Of a stretch of 64,000 nucleotides of DNA, positions 12,386 to 63,685 are shown one piece after another. Numbering within the stretch: position 1 is the stretch's first letter; the number at the start of each line of letters is the position of its first letter. The stretch comes from Caldisericales bacterium. GTDB taxonomy: Bacteria; Caldisericota; Caldisericia; JAAYUI01. The translations under genes and the position numbers were made by a program. Location of the stretch: NCBI GenBank assembly GCA_022707885.1, contig JAKIZT010000002.1:34458-98457 (forward strand). Direction: 5' to 3'. The notes beneath the pieces were generated by a model. The model saw only the letters and a list, made by a program, of their open reading frames with translations, searched no databases and had not been told where the DNA came from.

Positions 12386-12444
12386 ATCTCGCAGTAACTT
12401 GAAGAACAATCTTGCACAAGATATAATTAGTGTGGAGGTATAAC

Positions 12445-12852
12445 ATGGACAAAACCGAAGTTTCACAGATTAAAACATCAGGTATCATACTTGGAATTAC
12501 ATTTCTTTTCATACCGATAGTGGCACTCATCTATTCTCTGGCTACATTCAAGAAGAACGAGAAAATACTTCTTGCCAAGTGGGACAAGGTCTCTGCTGAA
12601 AACAAGGAAAAACTCAGGACAATGAGCTCTGCACTCCTTGCAACATGGCACGCGGCATTTGCACAACTTGGGCTTTCATTGATGATAGCGGCATTTTTAG
12701 GCTACATGTATGGATTCGATGCATTGAATAAAACTGCTTTCATAAACACATTTATGTTCTTCTTTATAGCTGCTGCAGTAATAGTTCAGATCTGGGCCGG
12801 AGCAAATGGATTTATTCTTTCCAGAAACACCTACTCCCAGGAGGCCAAATAA
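12445..12852 (+). CDS. small membrane protein (2-3 TM), unknown function
   Basis: GGAGGT RBS before the ATG. Hydrophobic helices GIILGITFLFIPIVALIYSL and LGLSLMIAAFLGY. Confidence 0.5.
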   Translation: MDKTEVSQIKTSGIILGITFLFIPIVALIYSLATFKKNEKILLAKWDKVSAENKEKLRTMSSALLATWHAAFAQLGLSLMIAAFLGYMYGFDALNKTAFINTFMFFFIAAAVIVQIWAGANGFILSRNTYSQEAK

Positions 12853-12857
12853 TAAAA

Positions 12858-13484
12858 TTACTTAAATTGATCGATTTTATCTTGTGTAATTAATATAGAA
12901 GATTCAACGATATCTACCTTAGGAGCAATACTGTAATTGTATTCTTTTAAATGTTTTATTAGTCCATCGAGCTCATTATTCAAAGCGCATATCGATTGAT
13001 CTAATCCAAGTAAACCACCATTAGTAATTTTCTTGTTTACATTTCTACTTTCAGGTTCATCCAGTGTGATTAAATAACATTTAGATTTTCTATGCACATA
13101 CTTTAGTGCCACAGCTTCAAGATCAGCTTGTTTGTATCTCTCTCTCAATGTTGTTTTCGCACTAATTGCTATAGGACCTAATTGAAGTGTATATAAGATG
13201 AAATCGTAATTAACATTAGGAACGAACGCAACTCTTGCTTGCATATAAAAAGGAAGCAAATTTTCTCTAATAAACAAAGTAGCAAGACAAAGTTCAAAAA
13301 TTTTGCCATTTATTGCAACATTATCTTTATTATACTTATTTTTATATATATTCCAATATTGAACTATATAATCAGAAGGCTGAGTGTATTCAACTTTCCT
13401 AAAATCACTTACTAAAGTTTCAAAAATGTTTTCAGTTTTTGAATCTTTTTTTTTTACAATACCTATATCAAATAATAGACTCAT
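12858..13484 (-). CDS. hypothetical protein, candidate restriction endonuclease partner of the adjacent methyltransferase
   Basis: Start overlaps the MTase stop. Shares the AT-rich composition of the MTase gene. No motif recognised with confidence. Confidence 0.35.
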   Translation of the reverse strand: MSLLFDIGIVKKKDSKTENIFETLVSDFRKVEYTQPSDYIVQYWNIYKNKYNKDNVAINGKIFELCLATLFIRENLLPFYMQARVAFVPNVNYDFILYTLQLGPIAISAKTTLRERYKQADLEAVALKYVHRKSKCYLITLDEPESRNVNKKITNGGLLGLDQSICALNNELDGLIKHLKEYNYSIAPKVDIVESSILITQDKIDQFK

Positions 13485-14287
13485 TAAATCCTCCGATTTG
13501 TTTTTTTAAATTCAAAAAGATTATTCATTGTACTCTCTTTCAACAATCTTTTAAGCGCAAGTTGACAATAAGAACTGTCTATTTCAATACCAACACATCT
13601 TCTTCGATTATTGTGAGAAGCAATCAGGGTACTACCACTTCCCATGAATGGATCTAAGATTGTATCTCCAACATAACTAAACATTTTTATACATCTTTTT
13701 GGTAATTCTATCGGAAATGGTGCGGGATGTCCAACTTTTTTTTTACTCTCACCATTAAATGTCCAAAGCCCGTTTGTCCATTCCAAAAATTCATCACGCG
13801 TGATATCTGATATTCTAGAACCACTAATTTTTTTCCATCTTTTTTTATAAAAAACAACTATCAATTCTACCGGTGCAATAACATAAGGGGCTGACGCTGA
13901 TAACCATGAGCCCCACGCTGTTCTTCTTGATATATTTCCTTCATTCCATACAATTGTTGAATGATATTGAAAACCAATTTGTTTTGCTAATATAGTTAAA
14001 TCAGCTCCAACGCTTTGTTGGCCCCCTTTGTTTTTATCTAAAGGAATATTTAAACAAAATCTTCCATCATCTTTAAGCCAATCAAAAACTTTTTTCATCC
14101 ATTTTTCTGAAAATTCACAATATTCTCTATATGTTAATTTATCATTATGTTGATTATATTTTATATCAACATTATACGGGGGTGATGTGATAACTAGATC
14201 TATCGAATTTCTTCGAATACGTCTAGTTGATAATAAATCATCACAAATTATTTTTAAATCATCATTTTCAAAGATAACTTTTTTCAT
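13484..14287 (-). CDS. DNA methyltransferase, beta-class (N4-cytosine or N6-adenine)
   Basis: Motif IV VITSPPY near the N-terminus and motif I DPFMGSGST near the C-terminus (beta-class order). SPPY favours N4-cytosine MTases. Markedly AT-rich compared with neighbours. Confidence 0.8.
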   Translation of the reverse strand: MKKVIFENDDLKIICDDLLSTRRIRRNSIDLVITSPPYNVDIKYNQHNDKLTYREYCEFSEKWMKKVFDWLKDDGRFCLNIPLDKNKGGQQSVGADLTILAKQIGFQYHSTIVWNEGNISRRTAWGSWLSASAPYVIAPVELIVVFYKKRWKKISGSRISDITRDEFLEWTNGLWTFNGESKKKVGHPAPFPIELPKRCIKMFSYVGDTILDPFMGSGSTLIASHNNRRRCVGIEIDSSYCQLALKRLLKESTMNNLFEFKKTNRRI

Positions 14288-14323
14288 TATAACAAGGTTA
14301 ATTTGAAATTTTGCATTGTCAAA

Positions 14324-15553
14324 TCATTCCCAGGAGGCCAAATAGTGGACCTGCTCTTCGGTTAGCTTGTCTATTACGATTCCTACCGATTCAAGTTTGA
14401 GCCTGGCAACGTCCAGATCTACTTTTTGCGGAACTGGGACTACATCTTTTGCCAGGCTCTTTCCATTTTCCAGACCATAGAGAAGTGAAAGTGCCTGCAA
14501 TGAGAACGAGAGATCCATTATCTCTGCAGGGTGGCCATCGGCACACACCAGATTGACAAGCCTCCCTTCACCAAGCACGTAGATTTTTTTCCCAGAAGGC
14601 AGTGTATATTCCTGGATATTGTTTCTGGCTTCCCTGTGCGAAACTGCATAACTTCTGAGTTGGACCATCGACACTTCCACATCAAAGTGCCCGGCATTGC
14701 AAAGGATCACCCCATCTTTCAACAGGTCAAAATGTCTTCTGTCGATTATATTTACATCGCCTGTTGCAGTCACAAAGATGTCGCCAATTCTTGCTGCGTC
14801 TTTCATCTCCATAACCTCACAGCCATCAAAATAGGCTTCCATTGCCCTGATCGGGTTTACTTCAGTTGCCACAACCCTGGCACCAAGGCCTTTTGCCCTC
14901 ATTGCTAACCCTCTGCCAACCCATCCATAGCCAGCTATAACAACTGTTTTCCCACACACTGTCAGGTTGGTTGTTCTAACTATTCCATCCCAGGATGACT
15001 GGCCTGTCCCGTATCTGTTGTCAAAAAGATACTTGCTTTGGGCATCATTTACGGCGATTACGGGGCACGGCAATTTGCCTTCACGGGCAAGCGCCCTCAT
15101 TCTGGTCAAACCAGAGGTTGTTTCTTCTGTTGCACAAAGAACTTTTATTGAAGGGTGTTTTCTAACCATTGTCACAACAAGATCAGCACCATCATCAAGC
15201 ACAAGGTCGGGACCAATTGCCAGCGTACTCTCAATGTTTTCCTCATGCTCGGTTTCGCTCTCGCCCCTTCTCGCAAAAACATTCACCCCAAGGGAAGCCA
15301 GGCCGGCAGAAACATCATCTTGTGCAGTAAGGGGATTTGACGAGCAAATGGCCACTTCGGCACCCGATGATTTGAGTACTTTTGCAAGATATGCGGTTTT
15401 GGCCTCAAGATGTATCGACATGGAGATTTTGATTCCATCAAATCTGCCCTTTAGGTATTCCGAGAGATTTGTAAGGACAGGCATTCTTTTTGAAACCCAG
15501 TCTATTTTCAAAAGACCTGCATCTTTTAGTTTTTCATCATAAACTCTGCTCAT
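14324..15553 (-). CDS. ahcY: S-adenosyl-L-homocysteine hydrolase
   Basis: Short-type SAHH with an NAD-binding GYGWVGRGLAMRAKGLGARVVATEVNP segment. AGGAGGAG RBS before the chosen ATG (MSRVYDEK…). Confidence 0.85.
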   Translation of the reverse strand: MSRVYDEKLKDAGLLKIDWVSKRMPVLTNLSEYLKGRFDGIKISMSIHLEAKTAYLAKVLKSSGAEVAICSSNPLTAQDDVSAGLASLGVNVFARRGESETEHEENIESTLAIGPDLVLDDGADLVVTMVRKHPSIKVLCATEETTSGLTRMRALAREGKLPCPVIAVNDAQSKYLFDNRYGTGQSSWDGIVRTTNLTVCGKTVVIAGYGWVGRGLAMRAKGLGARVVATEVNPIRAMEAYFDGCEVMEMKDAARIGDIFVTATGDVNIIDRRHFDLLKDGVILCNAGHFDVEVSMVQLRSYAVSHREARNNIQEYTLPSGKKIYVLGEGRLVNLVCADGHPAEIMDLSFSLQALSLLYGLENGKSLAKDVVPVPQKVDLDVARLKLESVGIVIDKLTEEQVHYLASWE

Positions 15554-17263: not shown

Positions 17264-17797
17264 CTATTCTCTTCCAGTTCCTGGTGAAACAATGTTGATT
17301 GTGACCGGACGCTTGCGATATCTGACATCAAGGTTTGGATTGACTGTGCGTTCTGTCCTGCCTGCTTTGTCGGTTGCTCTTGTCAAAAGCTGGTAGGTTG
17401 AGCCCTGAATTGATGTGTTGAGCTCATAGGACCACTCATTTGTCTTGGTGTTCAGATTTGCCTTGAACCATGTTGAACCGCCATCAAGCGAGATTTCGAT
17501 GTTGTTGACTGGGGCTTGACCCTTGCACTCGCCCATTAGATTGAATGGAAGTCTGATTGTGTCATTCTCAAGAACATTGCTGCACCAGCTCTTTGGCGTC
17601 GGATCCGATGCCAAATCGGTATCAGCTGACCCACCGGTAGTTGCACCTGCGGGTGGTGGTGGAGGCGCACCGCCTCCTCCAGAAGGACATCAGCCATATG
17701 GTCTGAAAGCCGTTGAACCGTTGGTTCCGTAGGTCACCGGCATCATCAAACCACAGGCTAAGGCAAACAGTACTGAAACAACTAGTAGTTTTTTCAT
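17264..17797 (-). CDS. small secreted protein gene interrupted by an in-frame TGA at 17690-17692 (selenoprotein/readthrough candidate or pseudogene)
   Basis: AAAGGAG RBS 7 nt before ATG (17797). Signal peptide MKKLLVVSVLFALACGLMMPVTYGTNGSTAFRPYG, then TGA, then a same-frame continuation CPSGGGGAPPPPPAGATTGGSADTDLASDPTPKSWCSN… for about 140 more codons. The ORF track lists this as 17264..17614. Confidence 0.45.
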
Positions 17798-18011
17798 ATG
17801 TTTGGCTCCTTTCGCCTGAATTTATGTTAGTATTCAATCACAATTCAATCTTAAATGCAATGGTCCATTTTGGCGATATTTACACCAGATTTGTACTAGA
17901 TTCACAAATCACCACGCAAATGCTGTATTTTCTTACAAATAACGATTTTATATTTTCGCTTATTTTTCGGTAATATATCATCATATCATAAAAAAATCCA
18001 AAATTTACCAG

Positions 18012-18039
18012 GTTGAATGATAGTGTGATAACATTCAAC
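18012..18039. promoter_or_regulatory. inverted repeat GTTGAATG-N12-CATTCAAC in a 390-bp AT-rich leader upstream of deoB (candidate operator)
   Basis: 8-bp perfect arms read in the sequence. TTGAAT half-sites recur nearby. Confidence 0.3.
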
Positions 18040-18230
18040 AATAATTTCACATTTTGAATCTTGTTGACCTGTTATCAAATCAAATCAGAACTAAGCTATA
18101 TAAAATCAAAATTTCACAAATTTAAAAGTGAAGGTGATTTTAAGAAAACAATGGTAAAAAGCGAAATATCTGGAAGTGGTTTATTCTTATTTAACCAGAA
18201 TAATCAATTTAGACACTAATATAATTCTAT

Positions 18231-61271: not shown

Positions 61272-61817
61272 ATGCCGGACGAAAAGAAGCTAACCGAAGA
61301 AACAATCGAATCTGAAAAGATGCTTTTTGACATAATCCTGAAGCTCGTCGACACAACAGACAAAACCATTCTCGACCTGGACTCAAAGCTAAACCAGATC
61401 TTCATTTTCTACGCCACCACAATGGGCATCCTGATCGGCGTTGTAAACAAAGACTACCTTACCTTCATCTTCACCGAAGCTGCCGACTACACGATAGTTT
61501 TTGCCGTTTTTGCACTCTGCTTCATAGCCACTCTTGCCCTGCTGATAAACGGCCTCTGGCCAAGAAAATTCGTTGAATTGCCCGATCTGGCATGGATGGA
61601 GAAACTGTCCGATTACCTAAAGGACCACCCGAAGTACACCCTCGCCGAGTTGGTCACACACGACCTGGAGATAACAAAAAAGTGCATATTCAAGGCAATC
61701 CACGCAAGCGAAAGGGCCGCAGACCTGAAAGGGTTCTGCTACAAAGCCGCGCTGGTGACGATCGTCCTCTCCCTCGTGGCGTTTTTTACTTCACTTGTGA
61801 TGTATTATGTGCCGTAA
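61272..61817 (+). CDS. three-TM membrane protein of unknown function adjacent to tRNA-Thr
   Basis: Cytoplasmic N-terminus, helices IFIFYATTMGILIGVV, IVFAVFALCFIATLALLINGLW, ALVTIVLSLVAFFTSLVMYYV. Confidence 0.5.
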   Translation: MPDEKKLTEETIESEKMLFDIILKLVDTTDKTILDLDSKLNQIFIFYATTMGILIGVVNKDYLTFIFTEAADYTIVFAVFALCFIATLALLINGLWPRKFVELPDLAWMEKLSDYLKDHPKYTLAELVTHDLEITKKCIFKAIHASERAADLKGFCYKAALVTIVLSLVAFFTSLVMYYVP

Positions 61818-61891
61818 GATTGATTTTTTATTTACATTATTAACTCATTCATGAGGTACTTTTTTTGTTTCTTAGGTCATATAATTGAAAT

Positions 61892-63685
61892 ATGGAAAAC
61901 TCAATTGAATCAATAGAAATGAATTTGAATAGTCTATTTCATGATTTTTATAGAGTCCCCCAATACCAAAGAGAATATGTTTGGGAGTACGAACAAGTAC
62001 AAAATTTACTGGAAGACGCAGAAGAAGAATTTGGAACTACAACTTCAACTAATAATTATTTTATTGGAACAATGATAACAATCCTTAATAATAAAAAGTA
62101 TGATATAATTGATGGCCAACAAAGACTTACTACTATATTTATATTCTTATGTGTTGTTAGGGATTTACTAATAATGGAGAAAGGCAAAAAGATCAATGAT
62201 CTTCAATCTCTTTTATGTAAGATAGCCAATTTTACAGATGATCCATCAGGTGAAATAGGCTCTGTAAAAGAATTTAAAGTTCATTTACTTTATAAAGATA
62301 GCCAAGATATCCTTGAAGAAATCGGTAAGAACCCAGAAGAAAGAGGTAGTATCGAAGATATTGATAAAAAGATTACAAATAAAACAAAATCTGTAAAAAG
62401 AATAATAAACACCTATAGAACTATTTGGTCTTATATGTATAGTTGGTCTGAGGATCAAATATGGAATTTTTATTTGAATTTCCTTAACAATGTAAGAGTT
62501 GTTAGAATAGTTACACCAAGTGAGTCTGGAGCTTTGCAAATTTTTGAAAGAATAAACTCAAGAGGTTTGGGGTTAGATAATCTGAGCCTGATAAAAAATC
62601 TCTTATTTATAAATGTTAGAAACAATAATGAGATGGAGGATATAAATATAACTTGGAAAGATATCACAAATAACTTAGAAAGTTGCAATGAAGACCCTGA
62701 TAGATTTTTAAGATACTTTATTTTTAGTAATTATGAATCAGATATTATTAAAAAAAGAGAGGCTTATAGCTGGTTTAAAAAAGATTTTAATAAACAAATT
62801 ATTGAAAAAAATCCTATTGATTTTATTAAAAAACTACATAAACAAAGTTTATTTCATAATAAGCTAATAAAAGAAAAGAGGAATTTTGATAACACCAGTA
62901 ACCCCTATTTAGAGAACTTATTTTATTTAAACACATCAGCGAGACAACCATTAATTTTGCTTCTGGCAGCCAGAGACCTACCAAAAGATTTATTCCAATA
63001 CTTATCACAGTGGGTAGAAAATTATTATGCTGTAAACCTTTTATCTGGTGGGAGGACTAATGAATTGGAAGGCAATTTCCAAAAATGGGCGCAAATATTT
63101 CTAAAAGAAAAGCCTAACAACAAAGAGCAACTAGATATTTTTATAAATAAAACGCTAAAGGAAAAAATTTTAGAAAAAAAAGATAAGTTTTATAATGAAT
63201 TTATAAATATGAGTTTGACAACAATCAAAACCTTATCGAAATTAAAATATATTCTTGCCAAAATAGAGGGTTACTTATACGCAAAAGCAAATAATGTGTC
63301 TAATTTAAGTATTGGAAATTACTTAAATAAAAATATTACGATTGAACATATTTTACCAGAAACAGAAGGGATATGGAGGAATAAGTTTGATAAGCCCCAT
63401 AAAGAGTATTATCAAAGATTAGGAAATCTGACATTACTTGAAGATTCAATAAACTCTTCTTTAAGCAACAGGGAATTTGAAAATAAGAAAAAAGGGTATT
63501 TTGACTCTAATATTATTTTAACAAAATCAATCGCTAGGAAACCAAGTGGTACTAAAGATACAAAAATAGATAAAATCTATAAAAATTGTTTAATCCAATT
63601 TGAAAAATGGGATTCAGTTTCAATAGAAAAAAGACAAGAAATGCTTGCAAATGTTGCACTAAAAACGTGGGGTATTATAGAGTAA
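61892..63685 (+). CDS. DUF262-DUF1524 fusion: GmrSD-family type IV (modification-dependent) restriction endonuclease
   Basis: N-terminal …FYRVPQYQREYVW… and DIIDGQQRLTT (the DGQQR ParB/Srx-like motif of DUF262). C-terminal …IEHILPE…LGNLTLLEDSIN (HNH/His-Me-like DUF1524). Very AT-rich. Confidence 0.75.
   Translation: MENSIESIEMNLNSLFHDFYRVPQYQREYVWEYEQVQNLLEDAEEEFGTTTSTNNYFIGTMITILNNKKYDIIDGQQRLTTIFIFLCVVRDLLIMEKGKKINDLQSLLCKIANFTDDPSGEIGSVKEFKVHLLYKDSQDILEEIGKNPEERGSIEDIDKKITNKTKSVKRIINTYRTIWSYMYSWSEDQIWNFYLNFLNNVRVVRIVTPSESGALQIFERINSRGLGLDNLSLIKNLLFINVRNNNEMEDINITWKDITNNLESCNEDPDRFLRYFIFSNYESDIIKKREAYSWFKKDFNKQIIEKNPIDFIKKLHKQSLFHNKLIKEKRNFDNTSNPYLENLFYLNTSARQPLILLLAARDLPKDLFQYLSQWVENYYAVNLLSGGRTNELEGNFQKWAQIFLKEKPNNKEQLDIFINKTLKEKILEKKDKFYNEFINMSLTTIKTLSKLKYILAKIEGYLYAKANNVSNLSIGNYLNKNITIEHILPETEGIWRNKFDKPHKEYYQRLGNLTLLEDSINSSLSNREFENKKKGYFDSNIILTKSIARKPSGTKDTKIDKIYKNCLIQFEKWDSVSIEKRQEMLANVALKTWGIIE

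Follow-up and report, generated by a model that had tools for sequence, protein, structure and literature searches.

Type IIP restriction endonucleases of the CCGG family share three defining features: the active site is a permuted PD...K...D/E, an N-terminal helix bears a conserved Glu, and CC:GG is read in the major groove by a helix with an R-(D/E)R motif at its N-terminal end (PMC6344858). Ecl18kI/SsoII (CCNGG) and PspGI/EcoRII-C (CCWGG) form the dimeric, base-flipping branch of the family. NgoMIV, Cfr10I, Bse634I, SgrAI, BsaWI, AgeI, and Kpn2I cut hexanucleotide and octanucleotide sites with a CCGG core; these enzymes read the outer base pairs with additional elements, and many of them act as tetramers or filaments (PMC6344858). 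Plain CCGG is the target of the HpaII system, which combines the C5-cytosine methyltransferase (MTase) M.HpaII with R.HpaII (PF09561, ~359 aa), often together with Vsr. Restriction-modification (R-M) units are also known to insert with a long target duplication (Nobusato/Furuta/Kobayashi; PMC2853133). Here, we examined a compact gene pair in a 64,000-nt stretch of the genome of a Caldisericales bacterium (contig JAKIZT010000002.1; this whole stretch is hereafter called the window). The pair lies directly downstream of the S-adenosylhomocysteine (SAH) hydrolase gene ahcY, and we are highly confident that it is a horizontally acquired 1.48-kb type IIP R-M unit, consisting of an SPPY β-class MTase and a CCGG-family PD-(D/E)XK endonuclease.

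The gene pair has the following layout:

12858–13484, minus strand: 208-aa open reading frame (ORF), putative restriction endonuclease (RE)
13484–14287, minus strand: β-class DNA amino-methyltransferase, 267 aa (Pfam PF01555, PADLOC MTase_II, motif positions)
13482–13494, minus strand: translational-coupling junction, with a GGAGGA Shine-Dalgarno sequence (13494–13489) and TAATG

The stop codon of the MTase (13486–13484) and the start codon of the RE (13484–13482) share 1 nt within TAATG, and the GGAGGA sequence is located 6 nt upstream of the start of the 208-aa ORF. The two genes are a typical translationally coupled pair. They are also conspicuously AT-rich: in 300-nt windows, the GC content was 0.24–0.35 over the pair and 0.45–0.49 in ahcY and MarR-GNAT, and the GC content at third codon positions (GC3) was 0.18 in both the MTase and RE genes compared with 0.43–0.45 in the neighboring genes. 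The initial annotation of this stretch had described two overlapping ORFs, the MTase motifs VITSPPY and DPFMGSGST, and a deviant composition; the ORFs, coordinates, motifs, and overlap were found exactly as given there, and the low values of both windowed GC and GC3 agree with the compositional claim. The ratios of nonsynonymous to synonymous substitution rates (dN/dS), calculated against the close relative L086, were 0.16 for the RE, 0.10 for the MTase, 0.05 for ahcY, and 0.13 for MarR-GNAT. Judging from these substitution patterns, both cassette genes are functional and under purifying selection. In other words, the locus has the expected layout of a type IIP system, with separate and adjacent M and R genes, both intact and both under selection.

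The borders of the pair carry the trace of an insertion. A perfect 17-nt repeat (TCCCAGGAGGCCAAATA on the plus strand) is present at both ends (100% identity, spacing 1493), and the chance expectation for exact 17-mer repeats in a 2.2-kb region is only ~1.4e−4. The elements of the scar and the two host genes are as follows:

14328–14344: left 17-nt direct repeat, reading TATTTGGCCTCCTGGGA on the minus strand and encoding the last ahcY codons (..YLASW and the GA of Glu)
12835–12851: right 17-nt direct repeat, within the final codons of the 140-aa gene (plus strand, ..SQEAK and stop)
14288–14327, minus strand: left insert junction, with the last base of the ahcY Glu codon and a new TGA stop (14327–14324)
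12831–12834, minus strand: relic of the pre-insertion ahcY end, G and TAG, which would complete Glu and stop
14324–15553, minus strand: ahcY, S-adenosylhomocysteine hydrolase (Pfam PF05221/PF00670, GC 0.465), host gene
12430–12852, plus strand: 140-aa predicted membrane protein (TM140), a convergent host gene, overlapping the duplicated target at its 3′ end

The insert (12852–14327, 1,476 bp) contains the MTase and RE genes only, without a transposase or integrase. Between the two repeats, the 1,476 bp had a GC content of 0.293, compared with a mean of 0.437 (standard deviation 0.038) for windows of 1,476 nt across the 64-kb background. When positions 12852–14327 and one repeat were removed in silico, the resulting AhcY had 409 aa, with its length and C-terminus (..HYLASWE and stop) unchanged; this restored gene would use GAG-TAG after the right copy, replacing the GAA-TGA supplied by the insert. 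The target lies where the two convergent genes overlap at their 3′ ends, and both genes stayed intact through the duplication. The empty ahcY/TM140 junction is predicted to have carried a single copy of the target, TATTTGGC(C/T)TCCTGGGA, followed by GTAG. These results indicate that the MTase/RE unit is a horizontally inserted R-M cassette with a 17-bp target duplication. Like the units described previously (PMC2853133), it is a bare R and M pair of <20 kb that lacks a transposase or integrase and is flanked on both sides by directly duplicated host sequence. Its 17-bp duplication is shorter than the >30 bp used as the criterion for those units; typical transposon duplications are <10 bp. Among 25 cassettes of the related C5-type systems described below that were checked, three (L026, L042, and L059) had flanking repeats of 26–55 nt.

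A point to set against this evidence is that no empty insertion site was found: the close relatives L085–L088 all have the insert in the same place, and the nearest cassette-free relatives of AhcY (72% and 67% identity) lacked synteny downstream of the gene. A metagenome search via AhcY relatives, covering 80 loci, also yielded none with conserved downstream synteny and no cassette. Separately, a comparison of L085/L086 with the window showed a single-base difference in the 17-nt repeat between lineages, the two forms being GGCCTCC and GGCTTCC. In each lineage, the two copies of the repeat agree with each other, and the substitution is synonymous for ahcY as well as for the 140-aa gene; it may have arisen by gene conversion, by re-insertion, or through insertions that were independent. 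L085 is a mosaic: its outer flanks shared 97–100% protein identity with the window, and the stretch from ahcY to the 140-aa gene (3933–7040 in L085, 12430–15553 in the window) 86–94%. The MTase and RE of L085 gave the same identity to the window as those of L086. This pattern suggests that the segment bearing the R-M genes in L085 was replaced by homologous recombination.

The 208-aa protein was modeled with AlphaFold2 (AF2) at a predicted local distance difference test score (pLDDT) of 89 and a predicted template modeling score (pTM) of 0.84, and the best Foldseek match of the model was PspGI (E-value 6e−6). The solved members of the family gave the following comparison values:

PspGI, solved family member: 13.9
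EcoRII-C, solved family member: 13.1
Ecl18kI, solved family member: 11.2
Bse634I, solved family member: 10.4
PfoI, solved family member: 9.8
Cfr10I, solved family member: 9.7
SgrAI, solved family member: 9.6
Kpn2I, solved family member: 9.4
NgoMIV, solved family member: 9.4
AgeI, solved family member: 8.5
BsaWI, solved family member: 6.9

A PD-(D/E)XK nuclease fold, nearest to the CCGG-family members, is therefore predicted for this protein with confidence. The positions conserved in its family point in the same direction. Among 30 homologs (49–87% identity), E64, P89, N90, D94, K110, R114, E115, R116, E123, and others were invariant. A profile of the family weakly matched Ecl18kI in a search against the PDB (E-value 0.056); I179-SAKTTLRER-W189 of Ecl18kI aligned with ISAKTTLRERY of the window protein, with the segment ISAKTTLRER identical, and GKEFE125S aligned with GKIFE64L. 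An hhalign comparison with the full Ecl18kI gene of plasmid pECL18 gave a probability of 89% and an E-value of 2e−6, with 32% identity over 108 columns. In this register, K110 corresponds to K182 of Ecl18kI, R114/E115/R116 to R186/E187/R188, and E123 to E195, and the profile alignments also place E64 on E125; the Ecl18kI residue numbers were taken from the PDB-numbered alignment and agree with the R116–R117 numbering in PMC6344858. In the model, E64 lies in the helix 56–73, D94 in the strand 88–99, and K110 at the end of the strand 103–110, while R114-E115-R116, 4–6 residues past K110, are placed at the start of the helix 116–130, which also contains E123. All three defining features of the CCGG family were found in the 208-aa protein, namely, the permuted active site, the Glu on an N-terminal helix, and an R-E-R motif after the catalytic Lys. 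E64, D94, K110, and E123 are thus the putative catalytic residues, and R114-E115-R116 the putative CC:GG-reading motif, as judged from the alignment and the model.

Some of the searches speak against this assignment. A phmmer search of the 208-aa protein against the PDB returned no matches at E-value ≤10, and neither NCBIfam nor PADLOC contained a model that matched it. The Pfam model RE_BsaWI (PF18643) covered residues 106–151 only, with 21.6 bits (E-value 2.3e−4), below its gathering threshold of 26.2; elsewhere in the family, the homolog P0082 has a precomputed PF18643 match and a P. megaterium plasmid homolog scored 18.1 bits. Furthermore, D94 was not paired with D160 of Ecl18kI by hhalign, and the intervening Asp-Lys hairpin is 6 residues shorter. 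We infer the equivalence of D94 and D160, and the proposed catalytic role of D94 relies on its invariance and its position in the modeled strand 88–99. The family was picked up by profile and structure methods only, not by direct sequence searches, and none of the curated family models scores the 208-aa protein above its threshold. The initial annotation had suggested a novel or highly diverged endonuclease without a recognizable motif, to be sought by structure prediction. The prediction did reveal a nuclease fold, and a diverged restriction endonuclease is what the partner appears to be, but the full set of CCGG-family motifs is present and the protein is not novel in kind: it represents an unannotated subfamily of the known CCGG family. 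At 208 aa, it is shorter than every full-length solved member of the family (258–395 residues) and similar in length to the isolated EcoRII-C domain (222). Compared with the Ecl18kI/PspGI branch (258–305 residues), it is shorter, has 6 residues less in the Asp-Lys hairpin, lacks the base-displacing Arg (replaced by N55), and is probably specific for an uninterrupted CCGG. Compared with the NgoMIV group, it has no room for elements that read the outer base pairs, and its R-E-R is contiguous, not spaced as R-x-(D/E)-R.

The MTase matched Pfam PF01555 (N6_N4_Mtase) over its full length (E-value 1.8e−48) and the PADLOC MTase_II model (E-value 5e−95). Motif IV (SPPY, residue 35) precedes motif I (DPFMGSGST, residue 212), which is the β-class order. 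Its relatives in the PDB included 2zie and the N4-cytosine (N4C) MTases 8s9n/8s9m and 1boo; these solved relatives include TTHA0409, which also has SPPY, two entries named “DNA cytosine-N4 methyltransferase,” and M.PvuII. The motif is SPPY, and not D/NPPY, in the window MTase and in all its orthologs. SPPY has been described as the signature of N4-cytosine enzymes, and DPPY occurs in N6-adenine enzymes such as CcrM (PMC2532716, PMC10406627). The enzyme is therefore classified from its motifs as a β-class MTase of the N4-cytosine type, with N4-methylcytosine (m4C) as its probable product, and the corresponding proposal of the initial annotation is supported by the PF01555 match, the motif order, and the SPPY motif. 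This call is reinforced because the usual partner of the nuclease family is a cytosine methylase. In a search of plasmid records, nearly all matches to the MTase were named merely “site-specific DNA-methyltransferase”; the annotated plasmid records did not reveal the specificity of the β-class MTase, and one distant match (28.5% identity) was named “Modification methylase PvuII.” The closest plasmid relative, with 64% identity and SPPY, was encoded on pCALNI01 of Calditerrivibrio nitroreducens (L176, 3399–4865). On this plasmid of a hot-spring bacterium, the MTase gene is followed by a gene for a 194-aa HNH endonuclease, not a CCGG-family nuclease, and an IS256-like transposase gene adjoins. 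Here, the same methylase appears to be combined with a different nuclease.

The nuclease belongs to a widespread family. More than 1,700 homolog clusters at 90% identity, of ~207 aa and all named “hypothetical protein,” were identified, and the identical 208-aa sequence is recorded from a Caldisericia metagenome-assembled genome (MAG). Relatives were present in 325 of ~185,600 species genomes (one genome scanned per species); their hosts were mostly Bacteroidota, together with Proteobacteria, Chloroflexota, Cyanobacteria, Patescibacteria, Firmicutes, and others. Genomic contexts were examined in 80 loci fetched from the genome relatives of the family. In 68 of these, a C5-cytosine MTase gene (PF00145, ~420 aa) was located directly upstream and in the same direction, with the stop and start codons usually overlapping. 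A β-class MTase like that of the window was encoded in only one (L036, a Chloroflexota MAG, 64% identity). Counting the C5-type loci together with five N4-type loci, the linkage of M and R genes is a recurrent one. In a neighbor-joining tree, the nearest homologs of the window nuclease formed one clade, and the nucleases of the window clade (P0002, P0003, P0060, and L036) were paired with orthologous SPPY β-class MTases sharing 63–92% identity. P0011 had another kind of partner, an N6_N4 MTase carrying a fused DCD/EVE-like domain. As far as these sequences indicate, the window system is one of the rarer forms of a common system, with an N4-type methylase in place of the C5 methylase. There is a precedent for this within the nuclease family: PspGI, from a hyperthermophile, has an N4C MTase, whereas EcoRII, from a mesophile, has a C5 MTase (PMC2532716). 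The usual rationale for N4C methylation is that 5-methylcytosine (m5C) deaminates readily at high temperature (PMC2532716).

The 80 loci also contained other genes around the nuclease. A Vsr gene was found in many of them, either free-standing or fused to the MTase gene. In L014, L024, L025, L055, and L056, the C5 MTase carries Vsr at its N-terminus in a fusion protein of 546–579 aa, and the fusion in L014 was confirmed by Pfam (PF03852 and PF00145). In at least eight loci, the operon also included a gene of the R.HpaII family (PF09561). The operons of L029, L032, L055, L063, L064, L068, L073, and L076 encode two unrelated nucleases, one of the R.HpaII family and one of the 207-aa family, with a single C5 MTase where the operon is fully visible (L068 is truncated upstream) and, in most cases, Vsr; one methylase apparently serves both restriction enzymes. 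An HNH_2 protein was encoded in seven loci, and an EVE-domain protein in one. The HNH_2 protein (PF13391, ~255 aa) is encoded near the 207-aa nuclease in L010, L020, L046, L047, L061, L071, and L044, and several of these loci have a shorter C5 MTase ORF (~296 aa) upstream and a gap of ~670 nt before the nuclease gene. PUA-like domains that read modified bases adjoin the nuclease in L082/L083 (2734–3990) and L004 (2921–3997): in L082, a DCD-domain N-terminus is fused to a distinct N6_N4 MTase, and in L004, a separate 358-aa EVE-domain protein is encoded between the C5 MTase and the nuclease.

Plain CCGG is the recognition site that we favor, although with clearly less confidence than the assignment of the R-M unit itself. 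The C5 partners encoded with and without an R.HpaII gene were 67–88% identical over their full length, variable region included, and they shared 72–76% identity with plasmid-borne Acinetobacter MTases that are partnered with an HpaII-family endonuclease alone, compared with 46% for the plasmid MTases of the pECL18/SsoII type and 37–40% for Dcm. The usual MTase partner of the 208-aa family thus belongs to the orthogroup that serves HpaII-family enzymes, the operons are shared, and the probable target is the same as that of the HpaII system, even though R.HpaII belongs to an unrelated protein family. The window differs from the HpaII system in using an N4C-type amino-MTase, with no C5 MTase and no Vsr. 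A second line of evidence came from an uncultured 636-kb jumbo phage (LR756504.1; L177/L178), which encodes a 49%-identical RE homolog at 328861–329460 with all key residues kept. In the 200 kb sampled from this phage, there were no CCGG sites, compared with ~57 expected from a maximal-order Markov model and 62 from the base composition, and CCWGG occurred at 0.85 of expectation. No homolog of the C5 or β-class MTase was found in the same 200 kb. GATC and CTAG were also depleted in the phage sample, to ~0.33. The pooled flanks of the host loci were ambiguous (CCGG 0.71, CCWGG 0.64).

Several observations pull away from a CCGG site. The absence of CCGG in the phage could reflect avoidance of HpaII-type systems of its hosts, unrelated to its own nuclease, and in the window CCGG was not depleted, k-mer avoidance giving no signal for the target site (observed-to-expected ratios of 1.16 for CCGG and 0.85 for CCWGG); the window count of CCGG is uninformative, because no depletion is expected in a methylated host. 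In addition, PspGI, EcoRII-C, and Ecl18kI, the closest structural relatives, flip out the middle base pair within an interrupted 5-bp site (CCWGG/CCNGG), and the contiguous R-E-R is of the Ecl18kI/PspGI type. If the nuclease resembled them in this respect, the R-M system would be the same and its site would be CCNGG or CCWGG. The invariant W44 is loosely reminiscent of the pocket residue Trp61 of Ecl18kI, but the alignment segment containing W44 and W61 scored −0.4 bits and was nonsignificant, and the invariant base-displacing Arg of Ecl18kI (R116; PMC6344858) is aligned with N55 in the window protein. Moreover, a CCNGG or CCWGG methylase would leave CCGG sites unprotected, the m5C partner orthogroup shares operons with HpaII-family enzymes and is much closer to the MTases serving them, and it is CCGG, not CCWGG, that is missing from the phage carrying the homolog. 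We therefore regard an interrupted 5-bp site as unlikely, and a site other than CCGG or CCNGG/CCWGG as slightly less likely again.

Two further explanations would change the interpretation of the pair as a whole, and we consider both to be very improbable. The module could be decaying or unrelated to restriction, with the MTase effectively an orphan and the 208-aa protein an inactive remnant, a regulator, or a Vsr-like repair nuclease. No family library names the 208-aa protein and every database name is “hypothetical protein,” some relatives stand beside an HpaII-family REase and so look redundant, and the RE has evolved somewhat faster than its neighbors (86.5% amino acid identity vs. 92–94%). 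However, the catalytic and recognition residues are invariant across phyla, the dN/dS of the RE is low, as given above, and in most loci the protein is the sole nuclease beside the MTase, with overlapping stop and start codons. A repair role is opposed by the presence of bona fide Vsr, co-occurring or MTase-fused, so the 208-aa family is not a replacement for it, and by the N4C partner, which creates no T:G mismatch for Vsr-like repair.

Equally improbable is a functional coupling of the cassette to ahcY, in which SAH hydrolase would relieve product inhibition of the MTase, as the initial annotation had hinted. The genes are co-directional, the ATG of the MTase follows the ahcY stop after a spacer of 36 nt that starts with TTGACA, and the arrangement is kept in related Caldisericia contigs. 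The scan detected no terminator-like site between ahcY and the MTase, and read-through from ahcY is possible for this reason; the scan as a whole was close to shuffled sequence, with 17 promoter-like sites vs. 11.2 ± 3.4 and two terminator-like sites vs. 2.3. But the adjacency is a product of the insertion, whose scar is still visible, and this scar recurs at the corresponding position in the related contigs, pointing to one inherited event. Orthologous pairs occur without an ahcY neighbor in L081 (beside DUF4340 and radical-SAM genes), in L089 (between transposases), in the Chloroflexota MAG L036, and on the Calditerrivibrio plasmid, where the MTase is paired differently, and clustering of recurrent neighbors found an ahcY-type neighbor in none of the 80 genome loci. 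The adjacency is limited to close Caldisericia relatives with the same insertion. The linkage to ahcY is positional, not functional, and the suggested tie is unsupported, given that the MTase/RE pair lies in unrelated contexts elsewhere. As for transcription signals, a perfect TTGACA hexamer (14318–14323, minus strand) lies 1 nt past the ahcY stop, inside the inserted DNA; a TATAAT overlaps the MTase ATG, 25 nt from TTGACA, too distant for the standard sigma-70 spacing.

A horizontally acquired type II R-M pair, as originally annotated, is thus supported by the fold, the composition, and the 17-nt target duplication. In the mechanism that we propose, the R-M unit would have inserted at the 3′ ends of ahcY and the 140-aa gene, duplicating the 17-bp target. 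Ecl18kI, PspGI, and NgoMIV suggest by analogy that the nuclease would work as a homodimer. Its metal-dependent active site, of the permuted PD...K...E type, would be made up of E64, D94, K110, and E123, and R114-E115-R116, at the N-terminus of helix 116–130, would reach into the major groove to recognize the CC:GG half-sites. The cut would fall before the first C, leaving 5′ overhangs. The MTase would protect the host by placing m4C within the CCGG site, and the system may serve as a defence against unmethylated incoming DNA or as an addiction module relative to it. The analysis itself shows the gene structure, the predicted fold, the conserved motifs, purifying selection, the partner counts, and the insertion scar; we infer from these the dimerization and chemistry of the nuclease, the exact sequence it recognizes, the position of its cut, and m4C as the product of the MTase. 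For the ~207-aa family as a whole, we offer a broader proposal only tentatively: it may be a minimal CCGG-family nuclease, consisting of the core and R-E-R, and the first cutter of a plain 4-bp CCGG, a portable module combined with no fewer than three types of cytosine methylase (HpaII-type C5, SPPY β-class N4, and DCD/EVE-fused amino-MTase), and perhaps also a weapon that the jumbo phage, purged of CCGG, turns on host DNA without a methylase.

The window contains only one other equally AT-rich stretch, at ~61.5–64 kb, and it also contains a restriction gene. In this second island (61272–63685, GC minimum 0.27), a 597-aa GmrSD-type type IV restriction enzyme (PF03235 and PF07510) is preceded by a 181-aa protein without a Pfam match, and the island looks like another acquired defence gene. 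A short intergenic AT-rich stretch (GC 0.26–0.31) is located at 17750–18200.

The present results give a probable function to a widespread protein family that is annotated as hypothetical everywhere and has no Pfam or NCBIfam model. At ~207 residues, its members would be the smallest enzymes of the CCGG family, and they may provide a minimal model for the reading of CC:GG by an R-(D/E)R helix without accessory elements, as well as a candidate compact isoschizomer of HpaII/MspI. The exchange of a C5 for an N4 methylase on one nuclease scaffold repeats the known pattern of PspGI and EcoRII, and the 17-bp scar is a further example of the movement of an R-M unit without a mobility gene. The general understanding of R-M systems is unchanged by these findings; their value lies in the annotation of this family and in the minimal CC:GG model that it may offer.

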